Below are positions 1,739-8,990 of a DNA stretch of 9,357 nt, piece by piece. The position numbers and the translations under genes are program-made. Origin of the DNA: a virus. Lineage: Duplodnaviria; Heunggongvirae; Uroviricota; Caudoviricetes. The notes below the pieces were generated by a model. It saw nothing but the letters and a program-made list of their open reading frames with translations. It searched no databases and had not been told where the DNA came from. Location: the IMG/VR virus record IMGVR_UViG_2537562195_000004. One strand, written 5' to 3'. How positions within the stretch are numbered: the stretch's first letter is position 1; each line of letters starts with the position of its first letter.

Positions 1739-1945
1739 ATGGAAGCAATCAAAAAAGTCATCTTTCGCCAGGAAGTAAAAAAACTTATCCACATTAAGGC
1801 AGACAGCACGCTGCAAAGCATGATCAACGCCGGAGAATTCCCGCAGGGTTTTCGTGTCGGTTTGCGCCGTCGCGGATGGTATGAGGAAGACGTAATCGCA
1901 TGGATGAAAGAACGAGAACAAGAAGCGCGCGGAACGACCGCTTAA
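1739..1945 (+). CDS. alpA: AlpA-family phage regulatory protein (Vis/excisionase-like helix-turn-helix)
   Basis: 68 aa; pattern ..L..MI.AGEFP.G...G.R.RGW.E.DV..WM is typical of AlpA/Vis proteins next to P4-type integrases. GAGG RBS at 1726-1729. Confidence 0.85.
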   Translation: MEAIKKVIFRQEVKKLIHIKADSTLQSMINAGEFPQGFRVGLRRRGWYEEDVIAWMKEREQEARGTTA

Positions 1946-2066
1946 CATATATAGGGCAAATGATGAACATAAAAAAAGCGGCCCCGAAATGGAGCCACCT
2001 TTCTGAACAATTAACCCGCTGCGCCGTATGTGTCAACAATCATAAGCTTGGGCATGATAACCGCGA

Positions 2067-2270
2067 TCAGGCTGGTGGGCAATTATCTTTCTTGTTGGGG
2101 CCGTATTGTGCTGCCATTTTCATCCGTTCAGAACGTGAATATTTTTTTAGAAACTCATCAAGGACAAAAGCGCATGGTGCGAATCTTTCTGATTCATGCT
2201 CGAGCGCCATATTTTCGTGCTCTCTGTTCGTTTTTTGCGATGGTGTATCGGTTGATTCTTTATTGGTCAT
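2067..2270 (-). CDS. Hypothetical small protein, 'MTN' paralogue C (second gene of RHH cassette 1)
   Basis: 67 aa. Paralogous to 2721-2948: both start MTN + S/T/Q-rich N-terminus and share C-terminal motif F.L(D/E)(E/D)F(L/V).KY(S/P)R. Start preceded by conserved ACAGG. Family unknown. Confidence 0.45.
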   Translation of the reverse strand: MTNKESTDTPSQKTNREHENMALEHESERFAPCAFVLDEFLKKYSRSERMKMAAQYGPNKKDNCPPA

Positions 2271-2278
2271 TGTGTGTA

Positions 2279-2322
2279 CCTGTAAAGCAATGCGCCGTAG
2301 TACCTCACGCCACGGCGCTGAT
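2279..2322. repeat. 44-bp conserved palindromic intergenic element, copy 1
   Basis: cctgtaaagcaatGCGCCGTagtacctcacgccACGGCGCtgat; 43/44 identical to 2957-3000. 7-bp inverted repeat GCGCCGT (2292-2298) / ACGGCGC (2312-2318) with 13-nt loop. The single difference (2309) is in the loop. Confidence 0.8.
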
Positions 2323-2327
2323 GTTTT

Positions 2328-2501
2328 TTATCCTTTGGGTTCAATACCGCGTTGCTGTAATTCTTTTCGGAGTACTCGCTTGATCCAGGTGGCTAAAGAA
2401 GTGTCACCGTCTGCTTTCGCTGCCTCTTCAAGTTGTGCTCTGAATTCTTCTGGTAGCCGCATTTGGTATGGAGGCGATCGCTTTTCCAATGGTGTTGACA
2501 T
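2328..2501 (-). CDS. Ribbon-helix-helix (Arc/Mnt/MetJ-type) DNA-binding protein; not in the supplied ORF track
   Basis: Hand translation of the minus strand: MSTPLEKRSPPYQMRLPEEFRAQLEEAAKADGDTSLATWIKRVLRKELQQRGIEPKG (57 aa, stop at 2328-2330). Fits the Arc/Mnt beta-strand/helix/helix pattern (P.x.hRhP.E.....A...G.S.N..I...L). AGGG RBS; start abuts palindromic operators. Confidence 0.7.
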   Translation of the reverse strand: MSTPLEKRSPPYQMRLPEEFRAQLEEAAKADGDTSLATWIKRVLRKELQQRGIEPKG

Positions 2502-2543
2502 GGTAATTACCCTTAATTACTATAGTTACATGGTAATTACCAT
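2495..2543 (+). promoter_or_regulatory. Divergent promoter/operator region I: sigma70-like promoter overlaid by two GGTAATTACC palindromes
   Basis: -35 TTGACA (2495-2500), 17-bp spacer, -10 TACTAT (2518-2523). Perfect palindromes GGTAATTACC at 2502-2511 and 2532-2541 (second extends to ATGGTAATTACCAT, 2530-2543); centres 30 bp apart. A possible minus-strand -10 TATAGT for the RHH gene lies in the same region. Confidence 0.5.
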
Positions 2544-2568
2544 TGTACTTACCGTTATACAAAAAACA

Positions 2569-2680
2569 ACGCCCCGCAGTGGTGGCTCACATATGGGGCG
2601 TCTAACCAAACCATTAATTGAGGTAACGATTATGGCTATAAAAGAGCATAGCTTACTCTTTATACACACACAAACGCCCC
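2569..2680 (+). repeat. Leader module copy 1 (orphan): hairpin, RBS, ATG and ~16 codons homologous to the Icd-like gene leader
   Basis: Hairpin cgcccc (2570-2575) / ggggcg (2595-2600), then tctaaccaa, GAGG, ATG at 2632 encoding MAIKEHSLLFIHTQTP (compare MVAVNHIPHLVHTQTA at 3378). Similarity then ends. On the minus strand the hairpin is followed by TTGTTTTTT, so it is terminator-like for minus-strand transcription. Confidence 0.6.
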
Positions 2681-2681
2681 G

Positions 2682-2701
2682 GAAACGGAATAATCCGTTT
2701 C
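2682..2701 (-). other. Perfect 8-bp hairpin just 3' of the upstream MTN gene (putative RNA 3'-end structure)
   Basis: GAAACGGA-ataa-TCCGTTTC, 20 nt downstream of the stop of the 2721-2948 minus-strand ORF. Confidence 0.4.
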
Positions 2702-2720
2702 ATGGTTCCGTCTTGTGCAC

Positions 2721-2948
2721 TCATCCTGGCGGTCGGTTTTTGCCGGATTTAAGCCGCCGTGGGTATTTATCGACAAAATCTTCAAGGGCAAATTTTTCTG
2801 GTGGCACTAAGCGCGGCGCTGGTGGTGGTATTTTTGTTCTGGTTAGTTCTTCCTCAAGTCTGGCGCAGGCTTCTGACTGCCTTTGCCGGATGATTTCATC
2901 ATCTTGCGTTTGCGTGTCTTGTATTGGTGATAGTGTGTTGTTGGTCAT
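2721..2948 (-). CDS. Hypothetical small protein, 'MTN' paralogue B (second gene of RHH cassette 2)
   Basis: 75 aa, paralogous to 2067-2270. Preceded by conserved ACAGGG and the 44-bp element. Family unknown. Confidence 0.45.
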   Translation of the reverse strand: MTNNTLSPIQDTQTQDDEIIRQRQSEACARLEEELTRTKIPPPAPRLVPPEKFALEDFVDKYPRRLKSGKNRPPG

Positions 2949-2956
2949 GATACTGC

Positions 2957-3000
2957 CCTGTAAAGCAATGCGCCGTAGTACCTCACACCACGGCGCTGAT
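2957..3000. repeat. 44-bp conserved palindromic intergenic element, copy 2
   Basis: 43/44 identical to 2279-2322. Same position in a 57-bp spacer between an RHH gene stop and an MTN gene start. Confidence 0.8.
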
Positions 3001-3005
3001 AGTGA

Positions 3006-3185
3006 TTATTCTGATTCTTTGGCCTTGCGACGCTGGCGGCGTTTGATTTCGCCGCGCATGGCTGCGTTTATAAACTGCCCCGTGCTTTCACCTTCTTCTT
3101 TCACGTTCTCCATGCCTTCAATAATTTCATGGGCAATACGTGCAGTTACAGATTGTGATTTTGCATTCTTTGGCCCCGTTGCCAT
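3006..3185 (-). CDS. Small RHH-like DNA-binding protein (putative repressor of the Icd-like/rep operon promoter)
   Basis: Preferred start is the ATG at 3185 (MATGPKNAKSQSVTARIAHEIIEGMENVKEEGESTGQFINAAMRGEIKRRQRRKAKESE), preceded by GAGGGG at 6-nt spacing; the track start at 3224 lacks an RBS and would place operator copy O1 in coding sequence. Pattern VTARIAHEII....GES.GQFINAAM resembles Arc/Mnt. Fold assignment is by eye. Confidence 0.5.
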   Translation of the reverse strand: MATGPKNAKSQSVTARIAHEIIEGMENVKEEGESTGQFINAAMRGEIKRRQRRKAKESE

Positions 3186-3206
3186 GTTTAACCCCTCATG
3201 TTTTTG

Positions 3207-3287
3207 GTGTAAGACAATATACACGAAAAAAAAATATTTTGAAGGGTTGACGTGTAAGACACCGTTATTTTACATTGTGTCTTACAC
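3207..3287 (+). promoter_or_regulatory. Divergent promoter/operator region II: three copies of GTGTAAGACA(C) around a + strand promoter
   Basis: GTGTAAGACA at 3207-3216, GTGTAAGACAC at 3252-3262, inverted GTGTCTTACAC at 3277-3287 (the last two form an 11-bp perfect inverted repeat with 14-bp spacer). -35 TTGACG (3247-3252), 17-18 bp spacer, -10 TTACAT/TACATT (3270-3276). Same architecture as region I with different operator sequence. Confidence 0.5.
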
Positions 3288-3318
3288 CTTGTTGATGCAA
3301 GGTACAGAAAAGACGAAA

Positions 3319-3431
3319 CCCCGCAGTGCTGGAACACATACGGGGCTTCTAACCAACAACGTAAACGAGGAGCCGTTATGGTTGCCGTAAATCATATACC
3401 ACACCTTGTACACACACAAACTGCCTTTGTG
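3319..3431 (+). repeat. Leader module copy 2 (functional copy, upstream of and overlapping the Icd-like gene start)
   Basis: Hairpin ccccg (3319-3323) / cgggg (3341-3345), tctaaccaa, GAGGAG RBS, ATG at 3378. 33/39 identical to copy 1 over the hairpin core by manual alignment. On the minus strand the hairpin is followed by a U-rich stretch. Confidence 0.6.
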
Positions 3432-3578
3432 TGGCGTTTTCTGGCACTGAGTGCCGGAGAATCTCAAATCATCCACGTAACCGCCTGGACGGAACGCGAA
3501 GCGCGTAGCCGTTGCCCGTCCGGTTGTGTTGCTGTATTCGCTGCCCGTATTCGTCAGGGGGAAACCTATGCACAATAA
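3378..3578 (+). CDS. Small protein, probably Icd-like (host cell division inhibitor-like, as in P1 icd / P4 kil region)
   Basis: 66 aa; pattern F.WRF.A......II.V.A.TEREAR...P.G.V.VFAARI matches my recollection of Icd-like proteins annotated in P4-like prophages. Strong RBS. Family assignment from memory, not a search. Confidence 0.5.
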   Translation: MVAVNHIPHLVHTQTAFVWRFLALSAGESQIIHVTAWTEREARSRCPSGCVAVFAARIRQGETYAQ

Positions 3579-5729: not shown

Positions 5730-5730
5730 A

Positions 5731-5928
5731 AAGTGGGCATTAAAAGTGGGAAAGGTGGGAGATTTAACGTAATTTTAACAAAATTACCCACTTTCCCACG
5801 TGTATATATCCCAAAAAGTGGGCACTAAAAAAATACCTATGAAACAAGATGATATAAATCCCAAATTTCCCACGTTGGACGAAGTGGGAAAACGTAAAAA
5901 GTGGGCGAAAAAAGTGGGTAGAGGTGGG
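5731..5928. repeat. Iteron array, putative origin of replication
   Basis: Eight direct copies of AAGTGGG/AGGTGGG (starting 5731, 5744, 5753, 5816, 5882, 5899, 5912, 5922) plus inverted copies (CCCACTTT 5787-5794, CCCAC 5795-5799 and 5869-5873), interspersed with AT-rich segments (5761-5786, 5823-5865). Begins 2 nt after the rep stop. Confidence 0.65.
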
Positions 5929-5931
5929 CAA

Positions 5932-6189
5932 ATGACTCAAAAACACAGAGACAGAACAGAGCCAAAATATAAAGCGTTAGACATGACAGAGCACGCCTTA
6001 AAGGTGGCAATCAGAACGATAGACCGCCACGCGGGGGAAGGATACGCGAAAGAACATCCCGACCTGATAAGCGCATTCATGACCACAGCAGCGGCAAACT
6101 TTGCCACGCTGACAGAACGTGAGATTGCCGAAGCGGAACAGGTAACAACCATCAACGTAAAAACCGGAGAGTCAGGCGATGATACATGA
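5932..6189 (+). CDS. Hypothetical protein downstream of the origin
   Basis: Preferred start ATG 5932 with GAGGTGGG RBS (the last iteron). The longer track ORF from 5800 translates the iterons (KKWAKKVGRGG) and is probably not real. Overlaps the PerC-like gene start by 11 nt. Confidence 0.45.
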   Translation: MTQKHRDRTEPKYKALDMTEHALKVAIRTIDRHAGEGYAKEHPDLISAFMTTAAANFATLTEREIAEAEQVTTINVKTGESGDDT

Positions 6190-6909: not shown

Positions 6910-7104
6910 ATGCCAGAGAACAACACCAGAAAGCCGGATAAAAGTGCCACGGTACACATAGACGCCGGAACTATGGAGAAGATCGAACGCTATCAGCAGT
7001 TCATCAAAGATAATCACCCGGGTATGCCGGTACCCACGAAAGGACAAATCACACGCAGCGCGGTTGAATACTGGTACCAGGCAACGTTAGGAGCCTGGCT
7101 ATGA
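6910..7104 (+). CDS. Small protein, possible RHH-like DNA-binding protein, translationally coupled to the protease-capsid gene
   Basis: ATG at 6910 preceded by GGAGG (6897-6901). Stop TGA overlaps the next ATG (ATGA at 7101-7104). Pattern TVHIDAGTMEKIERYQQFI...TKGQITRSAVEYWYQ is compatible with strand-helix-helix. Weak call. Confidence 0.4.
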   Translation: MPENNTRKPDKSATVHIDAGTMEKIERYQQFIKDNHPGMPVPTKGQITRSAVEYWYQATLGAWL

Positions 7105-8990
7105 AAACATGGTTTTCCATTAAGGCTATGGCAGATGTTGTCTATGTGCGTATTTATGACGAGATCGGCGGGTACGGTGTAAAAGCATCGACACTTACTG
7201 ACGAGATCAACGCGTGCGGTAATGCGTCTGAAATCCATCTTCGCATCCATTCACCTGGTGGCGACATCTTTGAAGGGCTGGCTATCTATAACGCCCTGAA
7301 AAATCATCCGGCAAAGAAAATTGTACACATTGAAGGCATGGCGGCTTCTATGGCCTCGTTTATTGCCATGTGTGGCGATCACATCGTTATGCCTGAAAAC
7401 GCGATGATGATGATACATGCCCCCCGTGGTGTTACTGCCGGAGTGTCGGGCGACGTTCGCCGCTTTGCTGACCTGATGGACAAGCTGGGCGACACGATGG
7501 CGGAAACCTACGCCGGAAGAACGGGCAGGAGCAAACAGGAGATCACCTCAATGATGGAGGCGGAAACCTGGATGGATGGCAATGAGTGTAAGGCTAACGG
7601 CTTCGCAGATGAGGTTATACCCGCGATTACAGCAATGGCCCGAATTGAATCAAAACGAATCGGAGATTTTTCAAATATGCCGGAAAAAATTAAAAGCATG
7701 ATCAGCCAGAAAACTGGCAGTGGCGAACAGGAACGACTTAACGGAATCCGTGAATTGTTTGGCACCTTCAACGGAAGATATAACGACCTGGCTATAAGTT
7801 GTCTTGCGGATTCAGAATGTAGCGTTGAGAATGCACGCGAACGCCTTTTACTCGCTATGGGTAAAGAATCAACGCCAACAAACAAAACCACCCCCGCAAA
7901 TCTTTACTACGCGTACACGGATAACGGCAATATAACCGGCGATGCCATGCGTCAGGGGCTTAATGCGCGTCTTGGTCACGAACGGGCCGAACGCGGTAAT
8001 CCTTACGCCATGATGAGCCTTTTCGATATGGCACAGGCATCATTAACCCATCGTGGTATAAGCACGGGCAGCTACAGCACACGCTCGCAGATAGTAAACG
8101 CGGCATTCACCCACAGCAGCAGCGATTTTACCGATATCCTTGCTGGTGGCGCTGAAAAATCAGTGCTTGCAGGCTGGGAGCACAGCGGCGAAACATTCCG
8201 CCAGTGGACGAAAAAAGGTTCCCTTTCAAACTTCCGGGAAGCCCGCCGCGTTGGTATGAATGGCTTCTCAACGTTAAACAAAGTGCCGGAAGGGGCAGAA
8301 TATAAATACATTACCACCAGCGATCGCGGTGAACCCATCGCGCTGGCTACTTACGGGAATATTTTCAGCATTACCCGCCAGGCGATAATCAATGATGACC
8401 TTGATCAGTTATCAACGGTGCCAATGGCTATGGGCCGTGCAGCATCAAGAACGGTGGGAAATCTGGTTAATCTGGTGCTTACAGGCAACGTAAAACTTTC
8501 TGACGGAATAGCGCTGTTTGACAAAAAACACAGCAACCTGATTGAAGCAGGACTGACAACACCGGGACTTAGTGCAGCACGTCACCTGATGCGCACACAG
8601 AAGGACAAAAATGGCGAAGTGCTGAATATTGCGCCTAAATTCCTTTTAGTTCCGGCAGCACTGGAAGATCGCGCGTTGCAGATGATTAACTCAACCGCAC
8701 CTTTCGGGGCTGATAAAAACAGCGGGATCTTTAACCCGTATCACAAGCTACTTGATATCATCGTCGATCCCCGCCTTGATGATATCAGCGAAAAACAATG
8801 GTACATGCTTTCCGCACAGGGAACAGACACAATCGAGGTGGCTTATCTTGATGGCAATGACGAGCCTTACCTTGAACAGCAGGAAGGTTTTATCGTTGAC
8901 GGCGTGGCCTGGAAAGTCCGTATTGATGCAGGTGTGGCAGCTCTGGATTATCGCGGTATGGTCAAATCAGGCGGGACAGATTCACTATGA
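7101..8990 (+). CDS. Prohead protease (ClpP-like, S14 family) fused to a large C-terminal capsid-like domain
   Basis: 629 aa. N-terminal ~190 aa has ClpP-type motifs: GMAASMAS (catalytic Ser context, compare ClpP GQAASMG) and MMIHAPRG (compare MIHQP). The ~440-aa C-terminal part is of capsid-protein size and is followed by a strong terminator; the capsid assignment is an inference (confidence about 0.55), the protease assignment is stronger. Confidence 0.8.
   Translation: MKTWFSIKAMADVVYVRIYDEIGGYGVKASTLTDEINACGNASEIHLRIHSPGGDIFEGLAIYNALKNHPAKKIVHIEGMAASMASFIAMCGDHIVMPENAMMMIHAPRGVTAGVSGDVRRFADLMDKLGDTMAETYAGRTGRSKQEITSMMEAETWMDGNECKANGFADEVIPAITAMARIESKRIGDFSNMPEKIKSMISQKTGSGEQERLNGIRELFGTFNGRYNDLAISCLADSECSVENARERLLLAMGKESTPTNKTTPANLYYAYTDNGNITGDAMRQGLNARLGHERAERGNPYAMMSLFDMAQASLTHRGISTGSYSTRSQIVNAAFTHSSSDFTDILAGGAEKSVLAGWEHSGETFRQWTKKGSLSNFREARRVGMNGFSTLNKVPEGAEYKYITTSDRGEPIALATYGNIFSITRQAIINDDLDQLSTVPMAMGRAASRTVGNLVNLVLTGNVKLSDGIALFDKKHSNLIEAGLTTPGLSAARHLMRTQKDKNGEVLNIAPKFLLVPAALEDRALQMINSTAPFGADKNSGIFNPYHKLLDIIVDPRLDDISEKQWYMLSAQGTDTIEVAYLDGNDEPYLEQQEGFIVDGVAWKVRIDAGVAALDYRGMVKSGGTDSL

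Follow-up and report, generated by a model that had tools for sequence, protein, structure and literature searches.

A truncated Icd-like gene start in an Escherichia coli phage-satellite-like island, with a minus-strand terminator-like hairpin and a candidate antisense RNA gene

The 9,357-nt stretch of DNA analyzed here over its whole length (hereafter the window; IMG/VR record IMGVR_UViG_2537562195_000004) corresponds to a 9.4-kb island that is present in identical form in E. coli strain 4 (NZ_CP045209.1), where it adjoins a tRNA-Pro gene between yejM and yejO. It codes for an integrase, an AlpA-like helix-turn-helix protein, a RepA-family helicase, a PerC-like protein and a fusion of a ClpP-like protease with a major capsid protein, and this gene content together with its size points to a small phage-satellite-like element. 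Our subject is a segment at 2561-2701 (hereafter the orphan), which repeats the leader and first codons of the intact Icd-like gene of the same island. It is one piece of a larger duplication, in which a regulatory module of ~700 bp, situated between the alpA-like gene and the replication genes, is present twice as diverged tandem copies. Each module comprises a small leftward open reading frame (ORF), a hairpin termed D1, a leftward regulator of the YlcI/YnfO type, divergent promoters with operators of their own and, on the rightward side, a leader that runs into the start of an Icd-like gene. The small leftward ORFs (2067-2270 and 2721-2948) are paralogous, as are the YlcI/YnfO-like regulators at 2328-2501 (20 bits, with a weak match to Arc) and 3006-3185 (64.8 bits, NCBIfam NF041551), and the D1 repeats (2260-2334 and 2938-3012) are 81% identical. 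The operator-like repeats of the two modules differ, with ATGGTAATTACC occurring twice in module 1 and an inverted repeat GTGTAAGACAC in module 2.

The intact Icd-like gene (3378-3578, plus strand) encodes a 66-residue protein recovered by NCBIfam NF033153 with 64.6 bits. It resembles P4 Kil weakly (hhalign P = 0.0045, 32% identity over 44 columns) and P1 Icd likewise (41% over 46 aa in tblastn), and by sequence it appears to be the counterpart of P4 kil and P1 icd; a tblastn search of phages with this protein returned one satellite-like record and the weak P1 Icd match, with P4 not found at E<=10. Pairwise alignment of 2556-2678 with 3303-3424 gives 84/123 identical positions, and a repeat search pairs 2556-2609 with 3303-3356 at 80%. 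The best-conserved part is the hairpin with the hexamer CTAACC (32/40), as against 13/24 for the spacer and Shine-Dalgarno (SD) region and 30/47 for the first 16 codons; beyond codon 16 the identity drops to 44%, which is the background level. The orphan has its own translation initiation region (2620-2634, plus strand, read from the sequence), with an SD element GAGGT at 2620-2624 and an ATG at 2632-2634, and lacks the core of NF033153 (profile positions 1-48, residues ~17-60), retaining just the 16 codons that precede it. Further on, the sequence reaches the 3' end of 2721-2948, a gene on the minus strand. The duplication, the ribosome-binding site with about 16 homologous codons, the better conservation of the hairpin core and the abrupt meeting with a minus-strand gene had all been reported by the initial annotation, and our alignments bear them out. 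In our reading, the orphan is the front end of the kil/icd-type gene of the upstream module, cut after codon 16.

The comparisons below draw on ~240 related loci from IMG/VR and E. coli records, and since the diversity was drawn from IMG/VR and E. coli genomes, nearly all of these relatives are from Escherichia and Shigella. A profile scan of genome contigs with the Icd alignment yielded two loci only, and a blastn search of 50,697 phage records with the icd leader produced no match. Among 5426 complete E. coli genomes the orphan is carried by ~110 and the leader in some form by ~875. A search of the literature, by the name of the element and by the sequence of the hairpin, recovered no description of the leader hairpin or of an antisense element. 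The leader hairpins and the antisense promoter discussed below were assessed with a custom position weight matrix (PWM) and folding statistics.

The orphan contains a terminator-like hairpin on the minus strand (2559-2602), with a stem at 2568-2602 and a U-rich tail at 2559-2567 (GUUUUUUGU), and a paralogous hairpin on the same strand precedes the intact icd-like gene (3306-3349; stem 3315-3349, tail 3306-3314). The icd copy folds on the minus strand with -23.3 kcal/mol, and three of its pairs are G.U pairs that become A.C on the plus strand; the orphan hairpin folds on the minus strand with -18.4 kcal/mol in the window and with -23.8 kcal/mol in those orphans that lack T2594. This position, noted earlier as a G-T versus G-C difference between the copies, is indeed T here and C in other orphans and in the icd copy, such that a G.U pair is kept on the plus strand and a C.A mismatch arises on the minus strand. 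In the window the two minus-strand stretches have folding z-scores of -4.4 (icd copy, 91 nt) and -2.4, whereas each of the leaders on the plus strand has -1.5. The same strand preference pervades the related islands, where the minus strand is the more stable in 61 of 63 distinct hairpin variants, by a mean of 6.1 kcal/mol, and where G.U pairs, which on the minus strand correspond to A.C mismatches on the plus strand, number 160/916 on the minus versus 27/762 on the plus strand.

An alignment of 39 variants shows that the 15-pair stem is 91% paired and that 9/15 pairs have changed on both sides, values that none of 500 shuffles reach, while sliding the partners reduces pairing to 40-50%. Across these variants the stem measures 13-16 bp with a mean of -23.3 kcal/mol, and the 10 nt past the stem contain on average 5.4 U (range 4-8) versus a background of 28%. 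The best U tails are those of the orphan-type hairpins (7/10 U, GUUUUUUGUA), and in some of the variants linked to icd the tract is interrupted (GUCGUUUC). In the plus-strand direction the sequence after the stem is CUAACCA, which contains no U-run. The leader hairpin therefore has the anatomy of a predicted Rho-independent terminator for leftward transcription. A standard promoter and terminator scan calls none of the leader hairpins, which such a simple scan misses because of their bulge.

The compensatory changes in relatives and the near-invariance of the orphan in 12 contexts indicate that the hairpin is a selected RNA structure, as had been surmised, rather than a decaying remnant. The view that the orphan is a pseudogene fragment without function on either strand could appeal to the mere 16 homologous codons left, to the stem-weakening substitution in this copy and to the deletion of the orphan in one relative, and we judge it highly improbable: the fragment has acquired no frameshifts or stops and only two single-nucleotide polymorphisms (SNPs) in 12 contexts with different flanks, the frame behind it is open for >200 codons, and ~110 of 5426 E. 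coli genomes carry it. Among the functions that had been floated for it, those of a minus-strand terminator or insulator and of a small RNA fit best, the T-run past the stem on the minus strand being present and the stem itself being a structure of that strand; a structured leader on the plus strand fits poorly, given the A.C mismatches and a z-score of -0.4 for the ribosome-binding region.

The evident client of the orphan hairpin is the leftward operon of module 2 (2721-3185, minus strand), which according to the RefSeq annotation, the NF041551 match and the repeats consists of the YlcI/YnfO regulator, the D1 hairpin (2953-3008) and the 75-aa ORF at 2721-2948. This raises the alternative that the orphan is a recombination scar, left by module shuffling at ACAAACG/AACAACG microhomology, in which only the minus-strand terminator matters, with no antisense RNA made and the start codon unused. 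The hairpin does follow the stop codon of 2721-2948 at a distance of 120 nt, a position that calls for a terminator, with the best U tails of the set, and other leftward operons of these islands end in similar terminators made of an A-tract plus a hairpin. However, the leftward gene already has a hairpin of its own, GAAACGG-ATTATT-CCGTTTC (2683-2701, minus strand), directly 3' of it and coinciding with a terminator-like scan call at 2690-2677, which is likely to be the first terminator of the operon. Moreover, most relatives have a single module, in which the hairpin stands between a rightward promoter and an intact icd-like gene with no leftward genes to its right; there it is conserved with covariation although it has nothing else to terminate. 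We accordingly rate the scar as unlikely, though as the foremost of the alternatives to be weighed below.

Several further hairpins of these modules may be recorded here. The strongly conserved D1 hairpins (2275-2330 and 2953-3008, GCGCCGT..ACGGCGC) lie between each leftward regulator and its downstream small ORF; the scan calls one terminator-like on the minus strand at 2996-2970, and such a structure could serve as an attenuator or processing site within the leftward operon. Downstream of the leftward ORF 2067-2270 and before the convergent alpA-like gene there is a canonical minus-strand terminator at 1969-1993, GGCUCC-AUUUC-GGGGCC followed by GCUUUUUUU, the place of which is taken in other loci by a different hairpin, GGCGACC..GGTCGCC with UUUGUUUU. 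The terminators beyond this ORF and its equivalents share with the icd leader hairpin the form of an A-tract followed by a hairpin.

Between the hairpin and the first codons, the complement of the orphan is also structured. A minus-strand stem-loop (stem-loop 1, 2603-2638) that is complementary to the ribosome-binding site and the AUG folds with -10.2 kcal/mol on the minus versus -5.5 kcal/mol on the plus strand; it presents an anti-SD CCUC in or beside its loop and uses as its 3' strand GGUUAG, the complement of the invariant CTAACC (2601-2607). That this hexamer is constant across three otherwise different leader types can be accounted for by the pairing of GGUUAG with the complement of the start-codon region. 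For the stretch from hairpin to AUG the minus-strand fold is the better one in 44/44 variants, with dinucleotide-shuffle z-scores of -2.6 on the minus versus -0.4 on the plus strand, and for a whole RNA of ~80 nt the z-score is -4.9 on the minus strand (all 88 variants below -2) versus -2.0 on the plus strand. RNAalifold run across the three leader types recovered the terminator only, with stem-loop 1 lacking a common register.

A candidate promoter for such a transcript lies inside the 16 homologous codons of the orphan (2645-2673, minus strand), with a -35 element TTGTGT at 2673-2668, a 17-nt spacer and a -10 element TATGCT at 2650-2645, and a predicted start at ~2638. Its equivalent in the first icd codons (3391-3419, minus strand) has TATGAT at 3396-3391 and TTGTGT at 3419-3414. 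In 57 leaders of types A and B, TTGTGT with 17 nt to the -10 element scores highest among the minus-strand PWM hits, and its relative position does not change; both hexamers are fixed in these types and the sequence of the spacer varies. Type C leaders have TGGTATGAT, an extended -10 element. Of 109 distinct hairpin-type leaders, 94% have TATGAT/TATGCT as a minus-strand -10 element, versus 3% of 34 distinct Icd-like genes without the hairpin. Taken together, the structured complement of the SD and AUG, the co-occurrence of the -10 element with the hairpin and the fold that involves CTAACC point to a short antisense transcript, and the first two of these also speak against a bare terminator scar. 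Each copy is on these grounds a candidate gene for a cis-antisense RNA of ~80 nt over the Icd/Kil start, with predicted extents of ~2638 to ~2560 for the orphan and ~3384 to ~3306 for the icd copy.

Known relatives place the same target under the control of an RNA. The hairpin-free Icd-like genes carry isrK and C4 RNAs upstream, as P4 does, and the ribosome-binding sites of P4 kil and of the 'MATTPTL'-type Icd-like genes behind C4 and isrK are nearly the same. In searches at the Rfam gathering thresholds (45 bits for C4, RF01695; 46.7 for c4-a1b1, RF03163; 50 for isrK, RF01394; 55 for the R1162 antisense RNA), no Rfam family, C4, isrK and c4-a1b1 included, had a match in the entire window, and these three had none between 2200 and 3500 at E<=10 with permissive filters. 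The only hits in that interval at E<=10 were at chance level, namely mir-3156, mir-374 and the R1162 antisense RNA (16.5 bits). P4, used as a positive control, scored 74.9 bits for C4 (the CI RNA) and 60.8 bits for isrK (the seqA region) just upstream of kil, and related loci scored 71-79 bits for C4, 46.8-48.5 for c4-a1b1 and 56-80 for isrK. Membership in the C4 family, raised as a possibility by the initial annotation, was accordingly rejected.

These searches also bear on the idea that the plus strand carries the functional element, as an mRNA decoy, a target of a C4/CI-type RNA or a protein-binding site. The hairpin does lie inside the rightward transcript, where it is followed by the invariant CTAACC, and the weak R1162 match (E = 7.3) is to the plus strand. 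That match is, however, far under the gathering score of its family, no C4, isrK or c4-a1b1 match was found while P4 and related loci score 46-80 bits, and selection has acted on minus-strand pairing, with many of the G.U pairs turning into A.C on the plus strand. We therefore give this idea very little credence.

The orphan ATG was described earlier as having no gene behind it, and here our results diverge: it heads an ORF of 252 codons plus stop (2632-3390, plus strand), antisense to 2721-2948 and 3006-3185. Relative to icd the ORF is in the +1 frame and is not fused to it, its stop codon (3388-3390) lying 10 nt beyond the icd ATG. The orphan ATG is in turn nested in frame within a 501-codon frame (1885-3390, plus strand), the open stretch of which starts shortly before the alpA-like gene ends. 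In 12/12 distinct contexts, with six downstream module types, the orphan frame is open for 615-1065 nt and either continues into icd as a fusion or has its end at -130 to +10 relative to the icd ATG. In the two remaining frames, reading from the orphan is closed after 6 and 15 nt. The SD-ATG region is likewise invariant in 12/12 contexts, save for one SNP between SD and ATG in one of them. More generally, the icd frame is open for >600 nt upstream in 59/123 unique loci, compared with 5 and 0 for the other two frames.

The frame 1885-3390 is antisense to four annotated genes that share one frame, with third codon positions coinciding on both strands; it contains a conserved possible start, ATG 1963 (MMNIKKAAPKW...), with similar peptides in other loci, and in relatives its equivalent is usually in frame with icd, like P4 eta/kil. 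Under a null model in which the minus-strand genes were recoded synonymously and the intergenic DNA shuffled, the frame of this window stayed open in 0.04% of trials (P about 4e-4). On this basis we rejected the proposal that coinciding third codon positions would by themselves have produced the long ORF. Neither the long plus-strand ORF nor the two small leftward ORFs matched any Pfam or NCBIfam model, the 53-residue translation from the orphan ATG having no Pfam match and the 475-aa translation of the long ORF no NCBIfam match. As the translation of the long frame is antisense-like and matches no family, our claim is that the frame has been kept open, and it stops short of a functional protein.

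The junction itself suggests how the orphan came about. The similarity to icd ends at ACAAACG|CCCCGG, the junction of the orphan block reading ACAAACG|CCCCGGAAACGG, and the truncation probably occurred by recombination at a short similarity between ACAAACG(G/C)CC of icd and AACAACGCCCC beside a terminator. From CTAACC through the junction to the 75-aa leftward gene the block varies by two SNPs across the 12 contexts, whereas the parts upstream of it include four promoter/operator types, and three types of hairpin occur with it. A nearly invariant block joined to differing upstream parts suggests a single junction event, followed by spread through recombination. The orphan is bracketed by direct repeats (D3) of 22 bp at 2555-2576 and 2660-2681, which are 82% identical and 105 bp (35 codons) apart. 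In one relative, L072/L119 (IMGVR_UViG_2531839661_000013; L072 1680-1860), the orphan is absent and both modules are kept; the 105-bp in-frame deletion is exactly that expected from recombination between the D3 repeats, with the junction hairpin in L072 leading directly into the A-tract of the left D3 repeat, and the long frame (1121-2470) is still open. This natural deletion means that the orphan can be lost, and an essential function of its own is thereby not established. The single origin, the junction that is the same in all contexts and the deletion variant also speak for the scar.

Some relatives have the same orphan along with true C4 RNAs (and isrK and c4-a1b1 RNAs), namely L002 (4654-4741) and L096, L099 and L106 (2261-2446, 2836-2925). 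In these the C4 RNAs precede further Icd-like/Ash-like paralogues downstream, a segment that is absent from the window. The presence of C4 cassettes beside the orphan implies that some islands stack at least three kil-type cassettes.

We favor, with moderate confidence, the reading in which the orphan is a truncated kil/icd start that holds a candidate antisense RNA gene and a terminator, with its start codon fused to an open frame that leads toward icd. The rightward promoter of module 1 (2495-2523, plus strand; TTGACA-17-TACTAT, 10/12 consensus matches) would transcribe the orphan, and it is overlain by the operator-like repeats ATGGTAATTACC at 2498-2514 and 2528-2544, with an inverted repeat whose arms (2500-2511 and 2532-2543) are 100% complementary. 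The orphan would constitute on the minus strand a unit of a weak promoter in the first codons, a stem-loop over the ribosome-binding site and AUG and a Rho-independent terminator, yielding an RNA of ~80 nt. By blocking translation from the start codon that it overlaps, in the way that the CI RNA represses kil of P4 and the c4 RNA represses icd of P1, such a cis-antisense RNA could do the job of the C4 RNA, which is missing from the hairpin-type islands. The terminator might at the same time halt the leftward operon of module 2 and so shield the promoters of module 1. Ribosomes that start at the orphan ATG, or further upstream past alpA, might protect transcripts of the upstream promoter from premature termination, by analogy with P4 eta/kil; translation of module-1 transcripts could in that case continue through module 2 and allow them to extend as far as icd and the replication genes, much like the P4 PLL transcripts that pass through eta, with the antisense RNA gating the orphan start codon.

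The orphan RNA might in addition act in trans, as an immunity RNA that also pairs with the ribosome-binding region of icd (3355-3385), so that the real gene would be repressed at two levels; this could be why the orphan survives. The modelled duplex of the orphan RNA with the icd leader has -87 kcal/mol vs -38 +/- 5 for shuffles, that of the 5' 40 nt of the orphan RNA with the icd SD/AUG -30.4 vs -16.7 +/- 3 kcal/mol, and in the relative L052 the downstream icd leader is of type B, like the orphan. These are purely thermodynamic predictions, however; most of the cross-duplex falls in the terminator stems, which are folded, the spacer and SD regions of the two copies agree at just 13/24 positions, and orphans occur alike with downstream leaders of types A, A2, B and C. 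Such trans action therefore appears improbable.

A number of observations weigh against the favored role of the orphan as an antisense RNA gene with a used start codon. The antisense promoter is weak (-35 3/6; mean PWM score 7.3 vs 6.3 bits in shuffles), as the scar would have it, and a standard scan does not call it. Its bases also encode conserved residues (His6, HTQT), so that coding constraint could explain part of their conservation. Stem-loop 1 covaries little within a leader type, and T2594 weakens the minus-strand stem of this orphan by about 5 kcal/mol. The long upstream ORF is not universal, being found in about half of the unique loci and in 9/16 upstream sequence clusters. The orphans share a single junction event as their origin and scarcely differ from one another, so that they may be intact because they are young and have spread by recombination rather than because of selection, and the relative L072/L119, which retains both modules and the long ORF without it, suggests that the orphan may be dispensable.

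The arrangement recalls several known immunity systems, the nearest in logic being the left-operon control of P4, with its nested kil/eta genes, the promoters PLE and PLL, the CI RNA and the seqA region. In P4 an RNA blocks the translation of kil and thereby stops transcription of the operon, and termination is reportedly prevented when eta is translated from an upstream promoter (both summarized in PMC10111431). As in P4, a first gene of ~65 aa (the toxic Kil there, the weakly similar and putatively toxic Icd-like protein here) stands, in about half of the unique loci, at the end of a long ORF that begins upstream of its own promoter and beside an alpA/vis homologue, P4 kil being the end of the eta frame; the kil ribosome-binding site is controlled by an RNA in P4 and would be so here, and related islands have true C4 and isrK before their Icd-like genes. 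Unlike in P4, there is no C4 or isrK here and one or two leftward modules of protein regulators stand in their place, the candidate RNA is on the opposite strand, the long ORF is antisense to annotated genes, and in the window it ends 10 nt past the icd ATG, out of frame and unfused. The immI region of P1/P7 (c4 - icd - ant), the source of the family name, is similar in that its operon starts with the gene for Icd, a small inhibitor of cell division; there, however, the c4 RNA, a member of Rfam C4, is processed out of the very transcript that it controls and recognizes its target by short loop-target pairs, whereas the element of the window is on the other strand and fails the C4 model. The primary account of the P4 mechanism is that of Forti et al. 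2002 in J Bacteriol, and according to Biere et al. 1992 and Riedel et al. 1993 the P1 RNA reportedly blocks icd translation and so causes premature termination before the downstream genes.

There are likenesses also to systems with cis-antisense RNAs. With a 57-aa leftward protein that matches Arc weakly and the placement of its candidate RNA, the locus resembles the immI region of P22, although the two have no sequence relationship, the target here is a satellite gene of the kil/icd type rather than an antirepressor, and the RNA here is a predicted one. In P22 immI the sar cis-antisense RNA of ~69 nt starts inside the 5' end of ant, covers the ribosome-binding site and has its terminator just upstream, and the region has small Arc-like repressors (Arc/Mnt, ribbon-helix-helix) and divergent promoters. 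The type I toxin-antitoxin pair symE/SymR is comparable in that the start of a small toxin is overlapped by an antisense RNA of ~77-80 nt ending in an intrinsic terminator; in contrast, the putative toxic gene here is the first of a long operon and lies nested inside a larger ORF, and its likely role would be in operon gating rather than addiction.

Further observations on the Icd-like genes and the remainder of the island can be added. Within icd codons 12-21 (3413-3443, plus strand) there is a terminator-like hairpin, CACACAAAC-UGCC-UUUGUGUG followed by GCGUUUUCUG, which might be a translation-sensitive attenuator; the orphan keeps its left arm only, and type C leaders have a different hairpin, CCCGC..GCGGG, with no U-run. 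On the plasmid pYuKOS15-2 (NZ_CP200249.1; L241, 2764-3484) a YlcI/YnfO gene, a divergent promoter, the hairpin, CTAACC, an SD and a 'MAGSQHTQ..FTWRF' start form the same cassette, here joined to an unrelated ORF of 136 aa that is followed immediately by a WYL-domain gene and a BREX system; the RefSeq start of the 136-aa ORF is placed 92 nt too far downstream. Directly after the RepA-helicase gene (5730-5935) the repeats AAGTGGG(C/A/T) are clustered in both orientations, which resembles an iteron-type origin of replication. The ClpP-like prohead protease/major capsid fusion (7101-8990) is the sole evident virion gene of the island and is accompanied by a small upstream ORF and one downstream ORF of 93 aa, an unusually minimal late region for a satellite that encodes a capsid.

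The logic of an antisense RNA over a small toxic first gene, combined with translation-dependent read-through, is a known one, and the novelty would lie in a predicted RNA that belongs to no Rfam family. We tentatively propose that a previously undescribed family of cis-antisense RNAs of ~80 nt, each with a terminator and a stem-loop over the SD/AUG, replaces the C4/CI immunity RNA in many E. coli phage satellites and works with a read-through ORF of 250-500 codons that is kept open antisense to the satellite repressors, with the orphan as a stand-alone copy whose start codon lets the upstream promoter override the downstream immunity module. The silencing of phage-inducible islands of Gram-negative bacteria is described as unclear in the literature, and this locus offers a testable switch of four parts: small regulators of the YlcI/YnfO type, an antisense RNA that would cover the first (putatively toxic) gene, a terminator specific to one strand and a long ORF with no evident property other than that of staying open. 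Its occurrence before a WYL/BREX defence locus on a plasmid suggests that the cassette may be a portable regulatory unit. There is also a caution for annotation, since standard pipelines overlook or misinterpret 'Icd-like' starts, the strand antisense to them and the long ORFs that overlap them. If the proposal is true, the principle of P4 and P1, by which translation of the first gene gates the operon, would gain a second RNA solution that is seemingly unrelated by sequence or Rfam model.

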